64,000 nucleotides of DNA, taken from sequence record ON210139.1. One strand, given 5' to 3'. Position numbers and translations under genes: made by a program. Source of the DNA: Escherichia phage EC128. Of the stretch, positions 1,685-19,254 are shown one piece after another. Position 1 is the stretch's first letter. Every line of letters begins with the position of its first letter. The notes below the pieces were generated by a model that was not told where the DNA came from, searched no databases, and was given only the letters and a program-made list of their open reading frames with translations.

Positions 1685-2187
1685 GTACCTTTAACTTCCA
1701 CAAGAATATGGAAATCATGGAAGGTAATGCCAAGATTATGAAGTTCATTGCACGTGATGAGCAGCTTCACCTTAAAGGCACTCAATATATTATTCGTCAA
1801 CTTCAATCCGGTACTGATGGTGATGAATGGGTTAAAATTGCTCAAGAGTGTGAACAAGAAGCAGTTGATATTTTCATGGAAGTTAACCGCCAAGAAAAAG
1901 ATTGGGCAGTTCATTTATTTAAAGATGGCGATGTTCCTGGATTAAATACAAATAGCATGTGGAGCTTTATTGATTACTTAACTGTATCTCGTATGAAACA
2001 GTGTGGTCTTCCATGCCCAATTACCGATGCTCCGGTTAAACACCCATATCCTTGGATTCGTGAATATCTTAATTCTGATAATGTTCAATCCGCGCCACAA
2101 GAAGTAGAACTGTCATCTTACCTTGTTGCGCAGATTGATAATGATGTTGATGATAAAGTTATGATGAGTTTTAAAAAATACTTTTAA
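1685..2187 (+). CDS. nrdB: ribonucleotide reductase small subunit NrdB, exon 2
   Basis: Translation ..MEGNAKIMKFIARDEQLHLKGTQ.. matches the NrdB C-terminal half; in frame with exon 1 after removing 594-1684. Confidence 0.9.
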
Positions 2188-2192
2188 GGAGT

Positions 2193-2214
2193 GGGCCGCA
2201 AGGCCCATTTTATT
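2193..2214 (+). terminator. hairpin GGGCC-GCAA-GGCCC followed by ATTTTATT after nrdB stop
   Basis: GC stem with tetraloop then T-rich run; lies between SD-like AAGGAG (2186-2191) and denA ATG. Confidence 0.5.
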
Positions 2215-3802
<1,588 letters not shown>

Positions 3803-3805
3803 GCT

Positions 3806-3859
3806 GTTTACAAGTCCCTCGTGTTGTGTTACAGTAGTCTTACTGACATAACATGAGGA
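3806..3859 (+). promoter_or_regulatory. early promoter/stem-loop element, copy A (GTTTAC -35, TACAGT -10, through SD GAGGA)
   Basis: GTTTAC 3806-3811, 18-nt spacer, TACAGT 3830-3835; 53/54 nt identical to 17909-17962; imperfect stem GTCC(C)TCGTGTT/AACATGAGGAC encloses the -10. Confidence 0.6.
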
Positions 3860-3866
3860 CTTTATG

Positions 3867-4370
3867 ATGGATTTGCAGCTTATTACTACTGAGATGGTCG
3901 TTGAAGCATACGGTGATACTACAGATGGGATTTCTGTATTCAAAGGAAATCGTCGAGTTGGATATATCACTGATCTTAAGAAAGATTTAGCTAAGCAAGT
4001 TAAGCGGAAAACGACCGTTAAAGAATATCGAAATCGTCGTCTTGAGAAAGCCCGTGATATGCTTCCTAATGCAGTTGAGGAGATGAAAGTCTTTTTAGAA
4101 AATCAACTCGTTAAGTATGATTGTGAAGTGTTCATTAATCAGACTCAACCTAATGTTCATATTAACAACTGTAAATGCTATATCATCGTTAATCCTTTGA
4201 CAGGAAAACATCGTCTTGGAATTAGTAATCCAAATCGTAGCGCATCAGATATGGCAGAAGATGTTGAGGCATGCTTTAAAATTTCTAAATCTCCGGCTGA
4301 ACATCATATTTTAATTAACGGTCTTTCTCAAGACGATATTATAGAGGTTATTAAAACTTTATGCAATTAA
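3867..4370 (+). CDS. alc: Alc, inhibitor of host transcription, 167 aa
   Basis: MDLQLITTEMVVEAYGDTTDG..; position after rnlA as in T4; SD GAGGA 7 nt upstream. Confidence 0.85.
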   Translation: MDLQLITTEMVVEAYGDTTDGISVFKGNRRVGYITDLKKDLAKQVKRKTTVKEYRNRRLEKARDMLPNAVEEMKVFLENQLVKYDCEVFINQTQPNVHINNCKCYIIVNPLTGKHRLGISNPNRSASDMAEDVEACFKISKSPAEHHILINGLSQDDIIEVIKTLCN

Positions 4371-4714
4371 GTAATACGACAGCAGGCTTGCTATTAATTG
4401 TAATTGCATTGGGCGGAACTTCTTTAATTTTAAAAAATAAAATTGAAAGATTAGAAACGTCTGTTGTAGAAATTACAAAAACGGCCAATGAAAACGCTTT
4501 AGCATTAAATAATTTGCGAATTCAGTATAATTATATTGATGCGATGAATAATAAAAATCGTGAGGCAATTGCTGCTATTGAGCGTGAAAATGAAAAGCTG
4601 CGCAAAGACGCAAAGAAGGCGGATGTGGTGGCTCATAAGCCAGGATTGGTTGAAAAACAAATCAACAACTCCTTCAACAAGTTCGCAGAAGACATTCAGG
4701 ACCTTTCTAAATGA
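4361..4714 (+). CDS. pseT.3: i-spanin (inner-membrane spanin; N-terminal TM helix plus coiled-coil)
   Basis: N-terminal hydrophobic helix AGLLLIVIALGGTSLIL then charged helical region; directly precedes a lipoprotein ORF with 4-nt overlap. Confidence 0.75.
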   Translation: MQLSNTTAGLLLIVIALGGTSLILKNKIERLETSVVEITKTANENALALNNLRIQYNYIDAMNNKNREAIAAIERENEKLRKDAKKADVVAHKPGLVEKQINNSFNKFAEDIQDLSK

Positions 4715-5010
4715 TTAAACTATCAGCAGTAATATTATCTATTGGTCTTCTAGTTGGTTGTTCTACAAAGCCTCTAGAAGTAAAGAAAGAAACAGTTCAT
4801 CCTAATTGGCCTGTACAAATAAAGTCATATGATGAAGCTAAACTATCTTGGCAAGTTAAAGTTATCGATGGTAAAGCTTGGGTCGGTATGCCATTTGAAG
4901 ATTCCCAGGAATTTCGTATTTGGCTTAATGATGTAAAACGATATGTACATGATCAGAAAACTATGATATGTTATTATCGCCAAGAGTTAAAAGAGGATAA
5001 ATGTAAATGA
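4711..5010 (+). CDS. pseT.2: o-spanin (outer-membrane lipoprotein spanin)
   Basis: Signal peptide with lipobox LLVGC-S (MIKLSAVILSIGLLVGCSTK); paired with the upstream i-spanin-like ORF. Confidence 0.75.
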   Translation: MIKLSAVILSIGLLVGCSTKPLEVKKETVHPNWPVQIKSYDEAKLSWQVKVIDGKAWVGMPFEDSQEFRIWLNDVKRYVHDQKTMICYYRQELKEDKCK

Positions 5011-6442: not shown

Positions 6443-6639
6443 TGGCTTGGCACCATGAAACTTGGGCTATTGTTATTGTAAATAGCGGTTTAGTTGTTAC
6501 TAGTAATGGGCAATTTTGTGTATTTACTAGTGAAAATAGAGCATGGGAGGAATGTCTTAAATTAAGAGAAAAGAATCCCGATGTTGAACTAGTAGTAAAG
6601 AAAACTAAACTGCCTTTACCATGGAAAACTTATGAATAA
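6442..6639 (+). CDS. hypothetical protein, 65 aa
   Basis: ATG overlaps pseT stop (TAATG); track ORF extends upstream without an ATG. Confidence 0.55.
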
Positions 6640-6832
6640 CCTAGAAAAGATTTATCGTCTTTGTGATAAAATTGAAAAAGAAAAGAAATATCTATTTTGT
6701 CTATGGCCTATTGTTGACGGAAGAGTAGGCCTAGATGTTCTTGATTATGAAACAGAAGACAAAGTAGATGGCGCAACTTTTGATAACGCTTTGGATGTTA
6801 TTGATTGGCTCGAAGAAAATTATGTGAGGTAA
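6632..6832 (+). CDS. hypothetical protein, 66 aa
   Basis: ATG start overlapping upstream ORF end; acidic C-terminus. Confidence 0.55.
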   Translation: MNNLEKIYRLCDKIEKEKKYLFCLWPIVDGRVGLDVLDYETEDKVDGATFDNALDVIDWLEENYVR

Positions 6833-6834
6833 AT

Positions 6835-7110
6835 ATGTTTCCGACTTACTCTAAAATCGTAGAAGTAGTGTTTAGCCAAATTATCGCTAATAACATGTTT
6901 GAAAAGCTTGATAATGCAGCTGAACTTCGAATCCACGCTCAAGTGACTCATGTATTGAATACTTTGCTTCCAGACCAGGTGGATTCTGTTGCCATCACGT
7001 TGTATCCAGGTTCCGCGCATATCATTGTTGTATTCGGTCTTGATGCTGAGCTAGTCATCAAAGGCGATATTCGCTTTGAATCACAGACATCAGAATTCAA
7101 AGCAATTTAA
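6835..7110 (+). CDS. hypothetical protein, 91 aa
   Basis: ATG6835 with SD GTGAGGT; track ORF starts at TTG6805. Confidence 0.55.
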   Translation: MFPTYSKIVEVVFSQIIANNMFEKLDNAAELRIHAQVTHVLNTLLPDQVDSVAITLYPGSAHIIVVFGLDAELVIKGDIRFESQTSEFKAI

Positions 7111-13532: not shown

Positions 13533-13801
13533 TGTTTGTTGTTCACACTATTTATGAAAATGAAGGTAATACTACACGTGATTACGGTCACGTAAATCAA
13601 TTTTTTAGATGCAATCCAGAATTCCGAGCTCAAAAAGACGAACGAATTTTTAAAAAATGCGTAGAGCAAGGTTTCATTTATATCAAGCACTGGATGCAAG
13701 GAAATAAAGTTAGAACCACATATCATAAGTCTTTGACTGAGCTTAATGATGAATTGATTTATAATAGAGCTGTAAACCAAACTCTGAAGGATGAACAATG
13801 A
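13532..13801 (+). CDS. hypothetical protein, 89 aa
   Basis: TAATG overlap with upstream ORF; SD AAGGAG. Confidence 0.6.
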   Translation: MFVVHTIYENEGNTTRDYGHVNQFFRCNPEFRAQKDERIFKKCVEQGFIYIKHWMQGNKVRTTYHKSLTELNDELIYNRAVNQTLKDEQ

Positions 13802-15261
13802 TTCTTAAAATTCTGAACGAAATAGCATCTATTGGTTCAACTAAGCAGAAGCAAGCAATTCTTGAAAAGAATAAAGATAATGAATTGCTTAAACGAGTAT
13901 ATCGTCTGACTTATTCTCGTGGGCTGCAGTATTATATCAAGAAATGGCCTAAACCTGGTATTGCTACCCAGAGTTTTGGAATGTTGACTCTTACCGATAT
14001 GCTTGACTTCATTGAATTCACATTAGCTACTCGGAAATTGACTGGAAATGCAGCAATTGAGGAATTAACTGGATATATCACCGATGGTAAAAAAGATGAT
14101 GTTGAAGTTTTGCGTCGAGTGATGATGCGAGACCTTGAATGTGGTGCTTCAGTATCTATTGCAAACAAAGTTTGGCCAGGTTTAATTCCTGAACAACCTC
14201 AAATGCTGGCAAGTTCTTATGATGAAAAAGGCATTAATAAGAATATCAAATTTCCAGCCTTTGCCCAGTTAAAAGCTGATGGGGCTCGGTGCTTTGCCGA
14301 AGTCAGAGGTGATGAATTAGATGATGTTCGTCTTTTATCACGAGCCGGTAATGAATATCTAGGATTAGATCTTCTTAAGGAAGAATTAATCAAAATGACC
14401 GCTGAAGCCCGCCAGATTCATCCAGAAGGCGTGTTAATTGATGGCGAATTGGTATACCATGAGCAAGTTAAAAAGGAGCCAGAAGGCCTAGATTTTCTTT
14501 TTGATGCTTATCCTGAAAACAGTAAAGCCAAAGAATTCGCCGAAGTAGCTGAATCACGTACTACTTCTAATGGAATCGCTAATAAATCTTTAAAGGGAAC
14601 CATTTCTGAAAAAGAAGCTCAATGCATGAAGTTTCAGGTCTGGGATTATGTTCCATTGGTAGAAATATACGGTCTTCCTGCATTTCGTTTGAAATATGAT
14701 GTACGTTTTTCTAAACTAGAACAAATGACATCAGGCTATGATAAAGTAATTTTAATTGAAAACCAGGTAGTAAATAACCTAGATGAAGCTAAGGTAATTT
14801 ATAAAAAGTATATTGACCAAGGTCTTGAAGGTATTATTCTCAAAAATATCGATGGATTATGGGAAAATGCTCGTTCAAAAAATCTCTATAAATTTAAAGA
14901 AGTAATTGATGTTGATTTAAAAATTGTAGGAATTTATCCTCACCGTAAAGACCCTACTAAAGCGGGTGGATTTATTCTTGAGTCAGAGTGTGGAAAAATT
15001 AAGGTAAATGCTGGTTCAGGCTTAAAAGATAAAGCCGGTGTAAAATCACATGAACTTGACCGTACTCGCATTATGGAAAACCAAAATTATTATATTGGAA
15101 AAATTCTAGAGTGCGAATGCAACGGTTGGTTAAAATCTGATGGCCGCACTGATTACGTTAAATTATTTCTTCCGATTGCGATTCGTTTACGTGAAGATAA
15201 AACTAAAGCTAATACATTCGAGGATGTATTTGGTGATTTTCATGAGGTAACTGGTCTATGA
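13798..15261 (+). CDS. 30: ATP-dependent DNA ligase, 487 aa
   Basis: MILKILNEIASIGSTKQKQAILEKNK.. and adenylation motif KADGAR; matches T4 DNA ligase. Confidence 0.97.
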   Translation: MILKILNEIASIGSTKQKQAILEKNKDNELLKRVYRLTYSRGLQYYIKKWPKPGIATQSFGMLTLTDMLDFIEFTLATRKLTGNAAIEELTGYITDGKKDDVEVLRRVMMRDLECGASVSIANKVWPGLIPEQPQMLASSYDEKGINKNIKFPAFAQLKADGARCFAEVRGDELDDVRLLSRAGNEYLGLDLLKEELIKMTAEARQIHPEGVLIDGELVYHEQVKKEPEGLDFLFDAYPENSKAKEFAEVAESRTTSNGIANKSLKGTISEKEAQCMKFQVWDYVPLVEIYGLPAFRLKYDVRFSKLEQMTSGYDKVILIENQVVNNLDEAKVIYKKYIDQGLEGIILKNIDGLWENARSKNLYKFKEVIDVDLKIVGIYPHRKDPTKAGGFILESECGKIKVNAGSGLKDKAGVKSHELDRTRIMENQNYYIGKILECECNGWLKSDGRTDYVKLFLPIAIRLREDKTKANTFEDVFGDFHEVTGL

Positions 15262-15446
15262 AAGCTTACTTAGAAACAATTGTCATTGCTCAAAAAGAAG
15301 GTGGAGATGTTTCTACTTCTGTATCACAAGTCATTCTCGAATTTGTAGATGCATACGCTTATAATAAATTTACAGAAACATTTGATGCCTATGAAAAAGG
15401 ACCAAAGTTTGAAATATATCGTACTCTCTTACCACTAGATTACTAA
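15258..15446 (+). CDS. hypothetical protein, 62 aa (between ligase and alt)
   Basis: ATG overlapping ligase stop; followed by terminator. Confidence 0.55.
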   Translation: MKAYLETIVIAQKEGGDVSTSVSQVILEFVDAYAYNKFTETFDAYEKGPKFEIYRTLLPLDY

Positions 15447-15470
15447 AGGCCTTCGGGCCTTTAATTTTAT
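15447..15470 (+). terminator. rho-independent terminator
   Basis: Stem AGGCC-TTCG-GGCCT followed by TTAATTTT. Confidence 0.7.
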
Positions 15471-15475
15471 AAATA
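15468..15475 (+). promoter_or_regulatory. candidate late promoter TATAAATA upstream of alt
   Basis: Exact TATAAATA about 24 nt upstream of alt ATG. Confidence 0.5.
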
Positions 15476-15498
15476 GAATAAACACTAGAGAGGATATG

Positions 15499-17547
15499 AT
15501 GGAACTAATTACAGAATTATTTGACGAAGATACTACTCTTCCGATTACAAACTTAAATCCAAAGAAGAAAATACCACAAATTTTTTCAGTTCATGTTGAT
15601 GATGCAATTGAACAACCAGGCTTTCGTTTATGTACCTATACATCTGGAGGTGATACTAATCGTGATTTAAAGATGGGCGATAAAATGATGCATATTGTTC
15701 CTTTTACATTAACCGCTAAAGGTTCAATTGCTAAATTGAAAGGTCTTGGTCCAAGCCCAATTAATTATATCAATTCGGTTTTTACTGTTGCAATGCAAAC
15801 AATGCGTCAGTATAAAATTGATGCCTGTATGCTCCGTATTCTTAAGTCTAAAACTGCTGGTCAAGCTCGACAAATTCAAGTTATTGCTGATAGACTTATC
15901 CGTAGTCGTTCAGGTGGCAGATACGTCCTTCTTAAGGAACTCTGGGATTATGATAAAAAGTATGCATATATTCTTATACATCGCAAAAATGTATCACTAG
16001 AAGACATTCAAGGGGTTCCGGAAATTAGTACCGAGCTCTTTACTAAAGTTGAATCGAAGGTCGGTGATGTTTATATCAATAAAGATACTGGAGCTCAAGT
16101 AACTAAAAATGAGGCAATTGCAGCATCTATTGCACAAGAAAATGATAAACGTTCTGATCAAGCTGTAATCGTTAAAGTTAAAATTTCCCGTAGAGCAATT
16201 GCACAAAGTCAGTCGTTGGAATCTTCTAGATTTGAAACACCGATGTTTCAAAAATTTGAGGCTTCAGCGGCAGAATTAAATAAACCAGCGGACGCTCCTT
16301 TAATTTCTGATTCTAATGAATTAACGGTAATTTCTACTTCAGGATTTGCACTAGAGAATGCTCTTAGCAGTGTTACAGCTGGGATGGCATTCAGAGAAGC
16401 TTCTATAATTCCTGAAGATAAAGAATCCATTATTAATGCAGAAATAAAAAATAAAGCTTTAGAAAAATTACGAAAAGAATCTATTACTTCAATAAAAACT
16501 TTAGAAACTATTGCTTCTATCGTCGATGATACTTTAGAAAAATATAAAGGTGCTTGGTTTGAAAGAAATATTAACAGACATTCGCATTTAAACCAAGATG
16601 CTGCAAATGAGTTAGTACAAAATTCTTGGAATGCAATAAAAACAAAGATTATTCGAAGAGAATTACGTGGATATGCTCTTACCGCTGGATGGTCATTACA
16701 TCCTATAGTCGAAAATAAAGATTCATCTAAATACACACCAGCACAAAAACGCGGAATTCGTGAATACGTAGGTTCAGGATATGTAGACATAAATAATGCT
16801 CTTTTGGGATTATATAATCCAGATGAGCGTACAAGTATTTTAACAGCACCTGAAATAGAACAAGCCATTGATAATTTAGATTCAGCCTTTAAAAATGGTG
16901 AACGATTACCAAAAGGTATTACTTTGTATCGTTCACAACGAATGTTACCTTCAATATACGAAGCAATGGTAAAAAATCGAGTTTTTTATTTTAGAAACTT
17001 TGTGTCAACATCATTATATCCAAATATTTTTGGTACTTGGATGACTGATTCATCTGTGGGTGTTTTACCAGACGAAAAGCGTCTAAGTGTTTCTATTGAT
17101 AAAACTGATGAAGGACTAGTAAATTCTAGCGATAATTTAGTTGGAATTGGATGGGTTATTACTGGGGCTGATAAGGTTAATGTTGTTTTACCCGGTGGAA
17201 GTTTAGCGCCTTCAAATGAAATGGAAGTCATTTTGCCACGTGGATTAATGGTCAAAGTTAATAAAATAACCGATGCATCTTACAACGATGGAACAGTTAG
17301 AACTAACAACAAGCTTATTCAAGCTGAAGTTATGACCACAGAAGAACTCACCGAATCGGTAATCTATGACGGAGACCATTTAATGGAAACTGGTGAATTG
17401 GTTACAATGACAGGTGATATAGAAGACAGAGTTGACTTTGCATCATTTGTTTCATCAAATGTTAAACAGAAAGTAGAATCATCTCTTGGAATTATTGCGT
17501 CTTGCATAGATATTGCAAACATGCCTTACAAGTTCGTTCAAGGATAA
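15499..17547 (+). CDS. alt: Alt, packaged ADP-ribosyltransferase, 682 aa
   Basis: MELITELFDEDTTLPITNLNPKKKIPQIF.. matches T4 Alt; SD GAGAGGA; second ATG of ATGATG chosen to give 682 aa. Confidence 0.93.
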   Translation: MELITELFDEDTTLPITNLNPKKKIPQIFSVHVDDAIEQPGFRLCTYTSGGDTNRDLKMGDKMMHIVPFTLTAKGSIAKLKGLGPSPINYINSVFTVAMQTMRQYKIDACMLRILKSKTAGQARQIQVIADRLIRSRSGGRYVLLKELWDYDKKYAYILIHRKNVSLEDIQGVPEISTELFTKVESKVGDVYINKDTGAQVTKNEAIAASIAQENDKRSDQAVIVKVKISRRAIAQSQSLESSRFETPMFQKFEASAAELNKPADAPLISDSNELTVISTSGFALENALSSVTAGMAFREASIIPEDKESIINAEIKNKALEKLRKESITSIKTLETIASIVDDTLEKYKGAWFERNINRHSHLNQDAANELVQNSWNAIKTKIIRRELRGYALTAGWSLHPIVENKDSSKYTPAQKRGIREYVGSGYVDINNALLGLYNPDERTSILTAPEIEQAIDNLDSAFKNGERLPKGITLYRSQRMLPSIYEAMVKNRVFYFRNFVSTSLYPNIFGTWMTDSSVGVLPDEKRLSVSIDKTDEGLVNSSDNLVGIGWVITGADKVNVVLPGGSLAPSNEMEVILPRGLMVKVNKITDASYNDGTVRTNNKLIQAEVMTTEELTESVIYDGDHLMETGELVTMTGDIEDRVDFASFVSSNVKQKVESSLGIIASCIDIANMPYKFVQG

Positions 17548-17551
17548 ATCA

Positions 17552-17937
17552 TGGAACTTATTACATAATTATTTGACGGCGCTTCGGCGCCGGTTGTTAA
17601 CTTAAATCCTAAGCATAAAATACCACAAATTTTTGCTATTCAAGCCGGCGAAGAAAGCGTGCTTCCTGGATTTAGATTTTGTACATACACCTCTGGCGGT
17701 GATACGAATAAAAACGTTAAGCCGGGCGATAAAATGATGCATATCGTAATGATAGGTGTTAATGAGAAATTATCACTGGTTAAGCTTAGAAACTTGGGTG
17801 GAAATCCAATTGGCGTCATTAATGCTGTTTTTGATACTGCTCTTCAAACAATGAAGCAGTATAAAATTGACGCATGCCTATTCCGCGTACTAAAAAGTTC
17901 AAAATGTAGTTTACAAGTCCCTCGTGTTGTGTTATAG
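17552..17937 (+). pseudogene. decayed duplicate of the alt 5' region (Alt N-terminal paralogue remnant)
   Basis: ATGGAACTTATTACATAA.. parallels alt start ATGGAACTAATTACAGAA; in-frame TAA at codon 6, then open through residues equivalent to Alt ~7-125; ends inside the downstream promoter repeat. Confidence 0.5.
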
Positions 17938-17962
17938 TAGTCTTACTGACATAACATGAGGA
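17909..17962 (+). promoter_or_regulatory. early promoter/stem-loop element, copy B
   Basis: 53/54 nt identical to 3806-3859 (single C/T difference in the -10); GTTTAC 17909-17914, TATAGT 17933-17938, SD GAGGA 17958-17962. Confidence 0.6.
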
Positions 17963-17969
17963 ACACAAA

Positions 17970-18260
17970 ATGAAATCTTCTTTGCGCTTTTTAGGTCAAG
18001 AACTTGTAGTTGAAGGCGTTATTCCTGCTGATAATGCTTTTAACGAAGCAGTTTATGATGAATTTATCAAAATTTTCGGAACAGATAAAAAGTTTGGAAT
18101 TTTTCCTTCTGAAAATTTTTCAAAGCCAGAACAGACTGAAAGTATTTTTCAGGGTGTAGTAACAGGTAAATTTGAGTCAGAAGCTCCTGTAAAAATTGAA
18201 GTTTATATTGAAGACGGTTTAGTTGCTTCAGTTGCTGCTTTCATTTCATTCCGTAAATAA
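17970..18260 (+). CDS. hypothetical protein, 96 aa, cargo ORF downstream of promoter repeat copy B
   Basis: ATG 8 nt after SD GAGGA; followed by strong bidirectional terminator; no recognisable motif. Confidence 0.6.
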   Translation: MKSSLRFLGQELVVEGVIPADNAFNEAVYDEFIKIFGTDKKFGIFPSENFSKPEQTESIFQGVVTGKFESEAPVKIEVYIEDGLVASVAAFISFRK

Positions 18261-18266
18261 AAATAT

Positions 18267-18284
18267 GGGGACCGAAAGGTCCCC
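18267..18284. terminator. bidirectional terminator hairpin between the 96-aa ORF and gene 54
   Basis: Stem GGGGACC-GAAA-GGTCCCC flanked by A/T-rich runs on both sides. Confidence 0.7.
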
Positions 18285-18288
18285 ATTG

Positions 18289-19254
18289 TTATATTGCTCC
18301 TAATATTTTACTTTGCGAATTGACAATTCCTGTCATGGTATTAATGTTTGAAATGCTTCCAGCAGTTCCCCCTAATCTACTGAGTCGTGAAAGCGAATTA
18401 GATAGTCCAGTAACGCCTCCGCTATTTCCGAGAACGCTTTGAATACCATTTATAGCAGCAGATTCAAGCCATTCAAGCGCAGCTTGCCTATCAACTGCTC
18501 CAGCCTGCATCACTCTATACGCAAAAGTAACGTCAAATGTAGTTATTTGGTTATCTCCATCATATGATAACTCAGGAGCGCTCACTGATATTGGAATGCA
18601 TCCGGTGAACATCACCGCAGTATGAGGCAATCCATTACGAGAATGAAGATTAACCTGAATATCCGCCTCGACATCTTGTGGCAAAGCACGTAATCCAGTT
18701 ACTGGGTCTTGAACGGAGTTAACCCAGTCTTGCATTGCACGATAGTTACAAGCTTCTGAATCCATTCTAAATGAAATAACCAAAGGGTCTAATTCTCTCC
18801 CAGTTATACGAATATTAGGAGAATTATAGTTCCAGTCAGTTTCATAGGATAATCTATTCTCTGGCATTTTTACAGAATATATCATCAATCCAGATGAGTT
18901 ATATGCCATGTTAAAGAAGTCAATTAAATATGTACCAACTGTAAATGAGCCTAATAAACTTTGAACTGTACGTTGACTCATGGCACCAATAAGATATTTA
19001 CTAACCCCTGATTTTCTTATCAGTTTTTGTGTGCCAGCAGTAATTAGCGTGGTAATTCCCTGATTAATATCACCTTGAGTCAATCCTAACCAATCTGAAT
19101 TTAGGCCCAAGTTATTATAAGAAAAGTTGCTAATTGAACTTATCAACGAAGAGCTTTTAGTTGATGGAGTTGTCGCAAAAACGCAGCTAAACATATTATT
19201 ACGTTGGAAATCTGCGTTTATTGCTTGATTATTAAATTCCTCTAAAGAATACAT
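18289..19254 (-). CDS. 54: baseplate tail-tube initiator gp54
   Basis: Length (321 aa) and gene order 54-48-29-28-27-51 as in T4; ATG confirmed. Confidence 0.85.
   Translation of the reverse strand: MYSLEEFNNQAINADFQRNNMFSCVFATTPSTKSSSLISSISNFSYNNLGLNSDWLGLTQGDINQGITTLITAGTQKLIRKSGVSKYLIGAMSQRTVQSLLGSFTVGTYLIDFFNMAYNSSGLMIYSVKMPENRLSYETDWNYNSPNIRITGRELDPLVISFRMDSEACNYRAMQDWVNSVQDPVTGLRALPQDVEADIQVNLHSRNGLPHTAVMFTGCIPISVSAPELSYDGDNQITTFDVTFAYRVMQAGAVDRQAALEWLESAAINGIQSVLGNSGGVTGLSNSLSRLSRLGGTAGSISNINTMTGIVNSQSKILGAI

Follow-up and report, generated by a model that had tools for sequence, protein, structure and literature searches.

The DNA analysed here, which we refer to as the window, is a stretch of 64,000 nucleotides from Escherichia phage EC128 (ON210139.1), a Tequatrovirus and hence a T4-like phage. 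Within this window, the segment between the genes alt and alt.-3 harbours a reading frame resembling the beginning of alt, which contains a nonsense codon, a G+C-rich hairpin and, towards its end, a deletion junction followed by an early-promoter-like site (Table 1). The surrounding sequence (17400-18300) matches 502 phage records, including Yersinia phage fPS-2 at 99.9% identity. In comparison of the open reading frame map with the annotations of T4 and fPS-2, the segment is found directly 3' of alt and 5' of alt.-3 and gene 54, which is the position of alt.-1 and alt.-2 in T4, with genes 54 and 48 converging on the minus strand.

Table 1. Features of the alt to alt.-3 region, in coordinates of the window.
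Feature	Position	Strand	Basis or remark
DNA ligase gp30	13798-15261	+	ORF list; fPS-2 and T4 annotation
alt.1	15258-15446	+	ORF list; fPS-2 and T4 annotation
alt, intact 682-aa ADP-ribosyltransferase, parent paralogue	15499-17547	+	ORF list; Alt in fPS-2 and T4
Putative remnant of a second alt paralogue; corresponds to alt.-1 and alt.-2 of T4 taken together	17551-17937	+	128-codon frame plus stop
Nonsense mutation at codon 6 (TAA, through a G-to-T change at 17566)	17566-17568	+	GAA in AV121, T4 and all four full-length alleles
C(UUCG)G tetraloop hairpin, six base pairs, all G-C	17577-17592	+	CGGCGC-UUCG-GCGCCG, -12.8 kcal/mol
A5 run	17710-17714	+	intact in the window; 1-nt deletion in T4 splits the copy into alt.-1 and alt.-2
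Deletion junction with the one remaining copy of the repeat CTAAAAAGT (9 bp)	17890-17898	+	blastn against AR1 and RB7
Out-of-frame tail SKCSLQVPRVVL plus stop	17899-17937	+	junction comparison with AR1
Early-promoter-like site for alt.-3, GTTTACA, 17 nt, TG-n-TATAGT	17909-17938	+	promoter scan, 10/12 matches plus extended TG
alt.-3, intact downstream neighbour, 96 aa, DUF5498	17970-18260	+	Pfam PF17602, E = 7e-64; T4 annotation

The product of the upstream alt gene contains the ADP-ribosyltransferase (ART) domain (Pfam PF03496, ADPrib_exo_Tox, residues 374-614, E = 1.4e-34). Its coding sequence begins with two successive in-frame ATGs at 15496-15501 (MMELITE), with a second in-frame ATG at 15496 preceding the start listed in Table 1, and the protein is annotated with either 682 or 683 residues depending on the record. 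A seven-residue N-terminal propeptide of Alt is removed by the prohead protease gp21 (PMC9026906), in agreement with (M)MELITE being cut behind its Glu, and the two start codons reconcile this length with the six residues counted from the second ATG. Among relatives, alt is a mosaic. The gene of AR1 is 95% identical to that of the window over its whole length, whereas in RB7 (window 16305-17898 compared with RB7 locus 3210-4848) the identity of 95% holds up to 16305, beyond which about 420 bp without a blastn match precede a C-terminal half of only about 81% identity. The first alt of HY03 is annotated as a coding sequence of just 645 nt (stretch 1-712 of the HY03 locus), with an opposite-strand ORF immediately upstream, and that of Pu-Krd-SF5 with 885 nt (stretch 1-248); in both phages alt may be disrupted or the annotation faulty. 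On the other side of the segment, alt.-3 is annotated 12 nt shorter in fPS-90 than in the window. In T4, mutants with C-terminal extensions of Alt.-3 evade the CmdTAC defence system (PMC11618068). A 32 kb record named Staphylococcus phage SAJK-IND (MG010123.1) carries sequence 96% identical to the spacer between alt.-3 and its upstream neighbour in Tequatroviruses, and this stretch is probably a contamination or the record mislabelled.

In front of alt lie a C(UUCG)G hairpin of terminator-like appearance (15444-15463) and, immediately 3' of it, a late-promoter motif (TATAAATA, 15468-15475), an arrangement that would insulate late transcription of alt from the transcripts of gene 30 and alt.1. 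In time-resolved omics data of T4, alt is found late as RNA and protein (PMC9697503) and alt.-3 early, again as RNA and protein (PMC9697503 Table S2). As our terminator scan revealed no recognisable site between alt and 18265-18286, the intervening segment is probably carried along at the 3' end of the late alt transcript.

The frame downstream of alt starts with an ATG at 17551-17553, which has a good ribosome-binding site at a distance of 6 nt (AAGGA, within the last codons of alt). Translation of 17551-17940 yields MELIT-stop-LFDGASAPVVNLNPKHKIPQIF...QYKIDACLFRVLKSSKCSLQVPRVVL-stop-stop, where the TAA at codon 6 is the sole internal stop and two consecutive TAG codons at 17935-17940 close a frame that is uninterrupted for the 122 codons following the TAA (17569-17934). 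The original prediction of an alt N-terminal paralogue with one nonsense codon in an otherwise open frame of 128 codons, caused by a single change from GAA to TAA, is thus borne out, with the correction that both the start (given as 17552) and the stop (given as 17567-17569) are located one base further to the left. With codon 6 read as Glu, BLASTP aligns residues 1-116 with residues 1-117 of Alt, with 61% of positions identical and a single gap (E = 1e-48), and the two sequences were also aligned at the level of DNA. The about 120 codons supposed to align with Alt residues ~7-125 are indeed open; however, the alignment ends at residue 117 of Alt, and the protein has no counterpart to the final 12 codons (17899-17934). 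Neither a Pfam family in general nor the ART domain (PF03496) in particular was detected in the repaired product of 128 residues, and a Pfam search of the N-terminal region of Alt did not return a domain either. The TAA happens to fall exactly on the Glu of MELITE, after which gp21 would cut in Alt, a coincidence to which we attach no functional meaning.

The origin of this frame becomes apparent from a comparison with relatives that contain an intact version. In a tblastn search with the repaired 128-residue product, AR1, RB7, UFV13, KIT03 and other phages match residues 1-116 at 99-100% identity, and these matches break off at residue 116, within a gene that the records label as a second Alt. 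We refer to this gene as alt2. In both AR1 and RB7 it encodes 685 residues, begins 3 nt past the stop codon of alt, is followed by alt.-3 and occupies the same position as the truncated frame of the window; the same arrangement of alt and a full-length alt2 is found in two IMG/VR contigs. The alt2 product of AR1 is 41% identical to Alt over its entire length, contains the ART domain at residues 416-620 (PF03496) and shares 99% identity with the frame of the window over residues 1-116. Its C-terminal 452 residues are found at an identity of at least 90% in about 402 records, and 90 of 494 records span the deletion junction described below, so that some 400 of roughly 490 related phage records have a full-length second alt of 685 residues at this place. 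Judging from these counts, the conserved full-length alt2 is the majority state, and T4 and the phage of the window belong to a minority that lacks it.

The truncation itself can be traced to a defined event. The region is colinear with the AR1 locus in two blocks, window 15200-17898 corresponding to AR1 2144-4848 and window 17890-18300 to AR1 6539-6949. The blocks overlap by the 9 bp of CTAAAAAGT, a sequence present in two copies 1699 bp apart in AR1 and RB7 and in a single copy in the window, which is the hallmark of a deletion, here of 1699 bp, between short direct repeats. Since 1699 is not a multiple of three, this deletion is frame-shifting. The 12 codons without counterpart in Alt are accordingly composed of the last 9 nt of the former alt2 frame, whose stop codon TAG is retained at 17907-17909, and of the spacer between alt2 and alt.-3, including the early-promoter-like site, at the place of which the record of vB_EcoM_Lutter annotates a promoter. 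A search for the deleted part of alt2 elsewhere in the window returned only weak paralogous matches within alt itself and gave no sign of a translocation within the window. Compared to its intact orthologue, the frame carries two disabling lesions, the frame-shifting deletion and the TAA. The view that it is an inactivated gene can thus be upheld, although the original prediction had missed the main lesion, namely the deletion in a full-length second alt, to which the TAA is secondary.

To describe the state of other truncated copies, we relied on INPHARED phage records, as a pattern for the exact junction identified only two contigs in IMG/VR and a protein-seeded scan only eight loci. An alignment of 24 truncated copies with four full-length alleles, which is not a random sample since 10 copies were picked for their TAA, and from which LH2 (L033) was left out due to a mismatch in the anchor string, reveals several states of decay. 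The TAA is the only lesion in the window, fPS-2, fPS-90 and SG1. It is combined with a 1-nt deletion in the A5 run in BYEP01, Lutter, slur03, JEP6, ACG-C40, pSe_SNUABM_01, ESh36 and SP21535, with both lesions being accompanied by a 9-nt deletion in F1 and by a 7-nt insertion in HY03. The A-run deletion alone is found in T4, RB59, e11/2, Pu-Krd-SF5, Lv5cm, UoN_LDJ77_1 and two IMG/VR contigs (L015 and L016), whereas all 128 codons are intact only in AV121 and FL23. The two main lesions thus occur in all four possible combinations, so that either alleles have recombined or the A-run has slipped repeatedly. The truncated copies also fall into two families of upstream haplotypes (e.g. TACG/TGCG versus CATA at copy positions ~220-228), both of which recur among full-length alt2 alleles, and this sharing reflects either recombination between truncated and full-length genes or two or more deletions that arose separately at the 9-bp repeat.

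The excess of amino-acid changes shows that the truncated copies are under relaxed constraint. Within codons 1-116, variable sites with alleles absent from the four full-length genes split into 13 nonsynonymous ones, the nonsense codon among them, and 10 synonymous ones, compared to one nonsynonymous and 19 synonymous sites where every allele is also found in a full-length gene (Fisher p = 3e-4). The test is approximate, as its reference set has only four alleles and its unit is the variable site, not the independent mutation event. Synonymous polymorphisms that were misclassified as private would weaken the signal, and the bias is therefore conservative.

Several other explanations have to be weighed against a decaying gene. 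That the TAA reflects an error of sequencing or assembly, and that the real phage contains an intact 128-codon frame, as it is found with GAA at codon 6 in AV121 and FL23, has practically no chance of being correct and can be dismissed: a 71-nt query centred on the TAA finds 100% identity in 42 of the 489 records that carry the stretch, among them fPS-2, fPS-90, ACG-C40, slur03/08/14, HY03, SG1 and Lutter, which originate from many laboratories and sequencing platforms, and the intact 128-codon version would equally lack the catalytic domain. More relevant is the proposal that the region is retained for a role of its RNA, with the hairpin serving as a 3' terminator or exonuclease barrier that stabilises the alt mRNA. 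The predicted hairpin is present and very stable, it is located 26 nt past the stop codon of alt, within codons 9-14 of the remnant, it is identical in 28 of 28 tabulated alleles (including the four full-length ones), and the terminator-like sites 5' of alt have stems that consist of C(UUCG)G hairpins as well. Tuerk and colleagues are said to have described C(UUCG)G hairpins, in 1988, as stabilising elements in T4 mRNA. We nevertheless consider such a role improbable. Although the structure has the G+C-rich stem-loop of an intrinsic terminator, no U-tract follows the stem (tail GTTGTTAACTT; 3' sequence GUUGUUAAC), and our scan did not flag it despite recognising the sites at 15444-15463 and 18265-18286. 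Instead of replacing a segment of alt, as had been thought, the hairpin belongs to the coding region of full-length, intact alt2, where it encodes DGASAP in every allele examined. In about 400 phages it thus constitutes codons 9-14 of a conserved alt2, which follows alt after 3 nt without a promoter in between, so that efficient termination at this site would silence alt2. These observations speak against its assignment as the alt terminator, as does its absence from the equivalent place in altb of the Dhakavirus IME08, which also contains tandem alt genes. Since it is likewise absent from homologues of about 65% identity (L011-L013), it can be ruled out as a conserved feature of tandem alt loci. 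Its invariance is not significant, as zero variants in 16 nt compare to about two expected from our own arithmetic on the variant counts (P about 0.12), and without variation there is no basis for a test of covariation. An Rfam search of 15300-18400 detected no known RNA family, with best E-values of 0.34-0.49 at scores far below the gathering thresholds, and a lineage-specific RNA-stabilising role finds no support in our analysis.

A second proposal assigns the remnant a small protein, translated from GTG 17659 (92 residues) or from the ATGs at 17734/17737 in the MMHIV codons (67/66 residues, the start of T4 Alt.-2), all of which are in frame as claimed. The product would be a free fragment of the Alt N-terminal domain, which might, for example, compete with or aid the incorporation of Alt into the prohead core. 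The frame is indeed open from 17569 to 17934, ORFs of 92 residues are annotated in fPS-2, fPS-90 and SG1 and ORFs of 67 residues in many relatives, and the N-terminal region of Alt is conserved over the Straboviridae down to about 30% identity. RNA of alt.-1 and alt.-2, assigned to the class 'middle', was found in T4, yet neither protein was detected (PMC9697503 Table S2), in a phage with a different lesion and by proteomics in which small proteins are easily missed. None of the candidate starts is preceded by a good Shine-Dalgarno sequence (GAAGAAAGC-GTG; GGGCGATAAA-ATG), nonsynonymous variants private to the truncated copies occur 3' of these starts (codons 39-111), the additional indels of F1 and HY03 affect the same part, the C-terminal 12 residues are encoded by out-of-frame promoter DNA, and no Pfam family matches the product. 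With relaxed constraint and several independent lesions in relatives, expression from an internal start appears highly unlikely.

We thus favour, at a probability of roughly 0.86, an interpretation of the region as a pseudogene, in which a second alt paralogue, once full-length, persists without function and in decay. According to the sequence comparison, the ancestral arrangement in Tequatroviruses is a tandem of two ADP-ribosyltransferase genes, alt and alt2, which are about 41% identical, with alt2 beginning 3 nt past the stop codon of alt. In the lineage of T4 and the window, the deletion between the two copies of the repeat removed codons 117-682 of alt2, and with them the entire ART domain, and shifted the frame such that it now crosses the old stop codon into the promoter of alt.-3. 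The remaining stump of 348 nt then acquired further lesions in different lineages, with the TAA of the window being a later and secondary one. The ribosome-binding site of the stump probably drives translation of the pentapeptide MELIT alone, and the stump would yield no useful protein. Counter to this reading stand the 122 codons that remain open past the TAA and the predominantly synonymous differences among copies; much of both can go back to full-length alleles, by descent or by recombination with them. The existing annotation, consisting of the T4 RefSeq note, the 'putative pseudogene' of fPS-2 and the account of Nolan et al. 2006 (PMC1524935), supports the assignment as a pseudogene. Whether the loss of a second injected ADP-ribosyltransferase was in addition adaptive and recurrent, with the 9-bp repeats acting as deletion hotspot and the phage escaping, for example, a host defence that detects Alt2 or is set off by it, is a more speculative matter. 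The same junction is found on two upstream haplotype families and the two secondary lesions in all four combinations, patterns for which recombination is an equally good explanation, and we regard this idea as unlikely.

The remnant as such is already known, annotated and an ordinary pseudogene, whose TAA is shared by dozens of sequenced phages. What our comparison adds is small, namely that it originated from a full-length paralogue through a deletion whose 9-bp junction is defined, and not through partial duplication, and that it exists in a spectrum of independent decay states. Outside of annotation hygiene the remnant matters little: the ORFs of 92, 67 and 61 residues that many records list here, frequently under the name 'RNA polymerase-ADP-ribosyltransferase', ought to be marked as fragments of a pseudogene. 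Of greater interest than the remnant itself is a side point: the model phage T4 lacks a second packaged enzyme of the Alt type that is kept by about four fifths of its sequenced relatives, and the full-length Alt2 enzyme appears to be uncharacterised.

Among the systems to which the remnant can be compared, the Alt protein of T4, a packaged and injected mono-ADP-ribosyltransferase of 682 residues, is 61% identical to it across the N-terminal 117 residues, where the MELITE propeptide motif is located, whereas the remnant lacks the catalytic domain and contains a premature stop and thus cannot be an enzyme. In AR1 (AR1_201), RB7 (RB7_192, labelled alt.-2), T2 and most Tequatroviruses, the start of alt2, the hairpin and the first 116 codons (99-100% identity) are as in the remnant, with the full-length genes encoding 685 residues with the PF03496 ART domain and the remnant lacking codons 117-682. 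The copy in Yersinia phage fPS-2 (g192c) contains the same TAA and the same junction and differs from that of the window at a single synonymous position (AGC versus AGT); only its part of 92 residues starting with GTG is annotated, as 'putative pseudogene'. The closest counterparts in T4 are alt.-1 and alt.-2 (T4p199 and T4p198; UniProt P39495 and P39494), which are located between alt and alt.-3 as in the window, with the same hairpin and the same junction (the string CTAAAAAGTTCAAAATG is present in both). They align to it over the full length with few differences in a three-way alignment of window, T4 and AV121, which identifies them as orthologues. Both copies have decayed differently, as T4 has lost one nucleotide of the A5 run, resulting in two short ORFs with GAA at codon 6, whereas the window has kept the run and carries TAA. 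According to the annotation of T4, alt.-1 and alt.-2 jointly go back to an old duplicate of the 5' portion of alt that gained a stop codon and a new start. Nolan et al. 2006 (PMC1524935) give the same account, and both sources recognise a paralogous fragment of alt. While this account assumes a partial duplication, the present comparison shows a derivative of a full-length paralogue that was truncated by deletion, and the T4 note would be better reworded in this sense.
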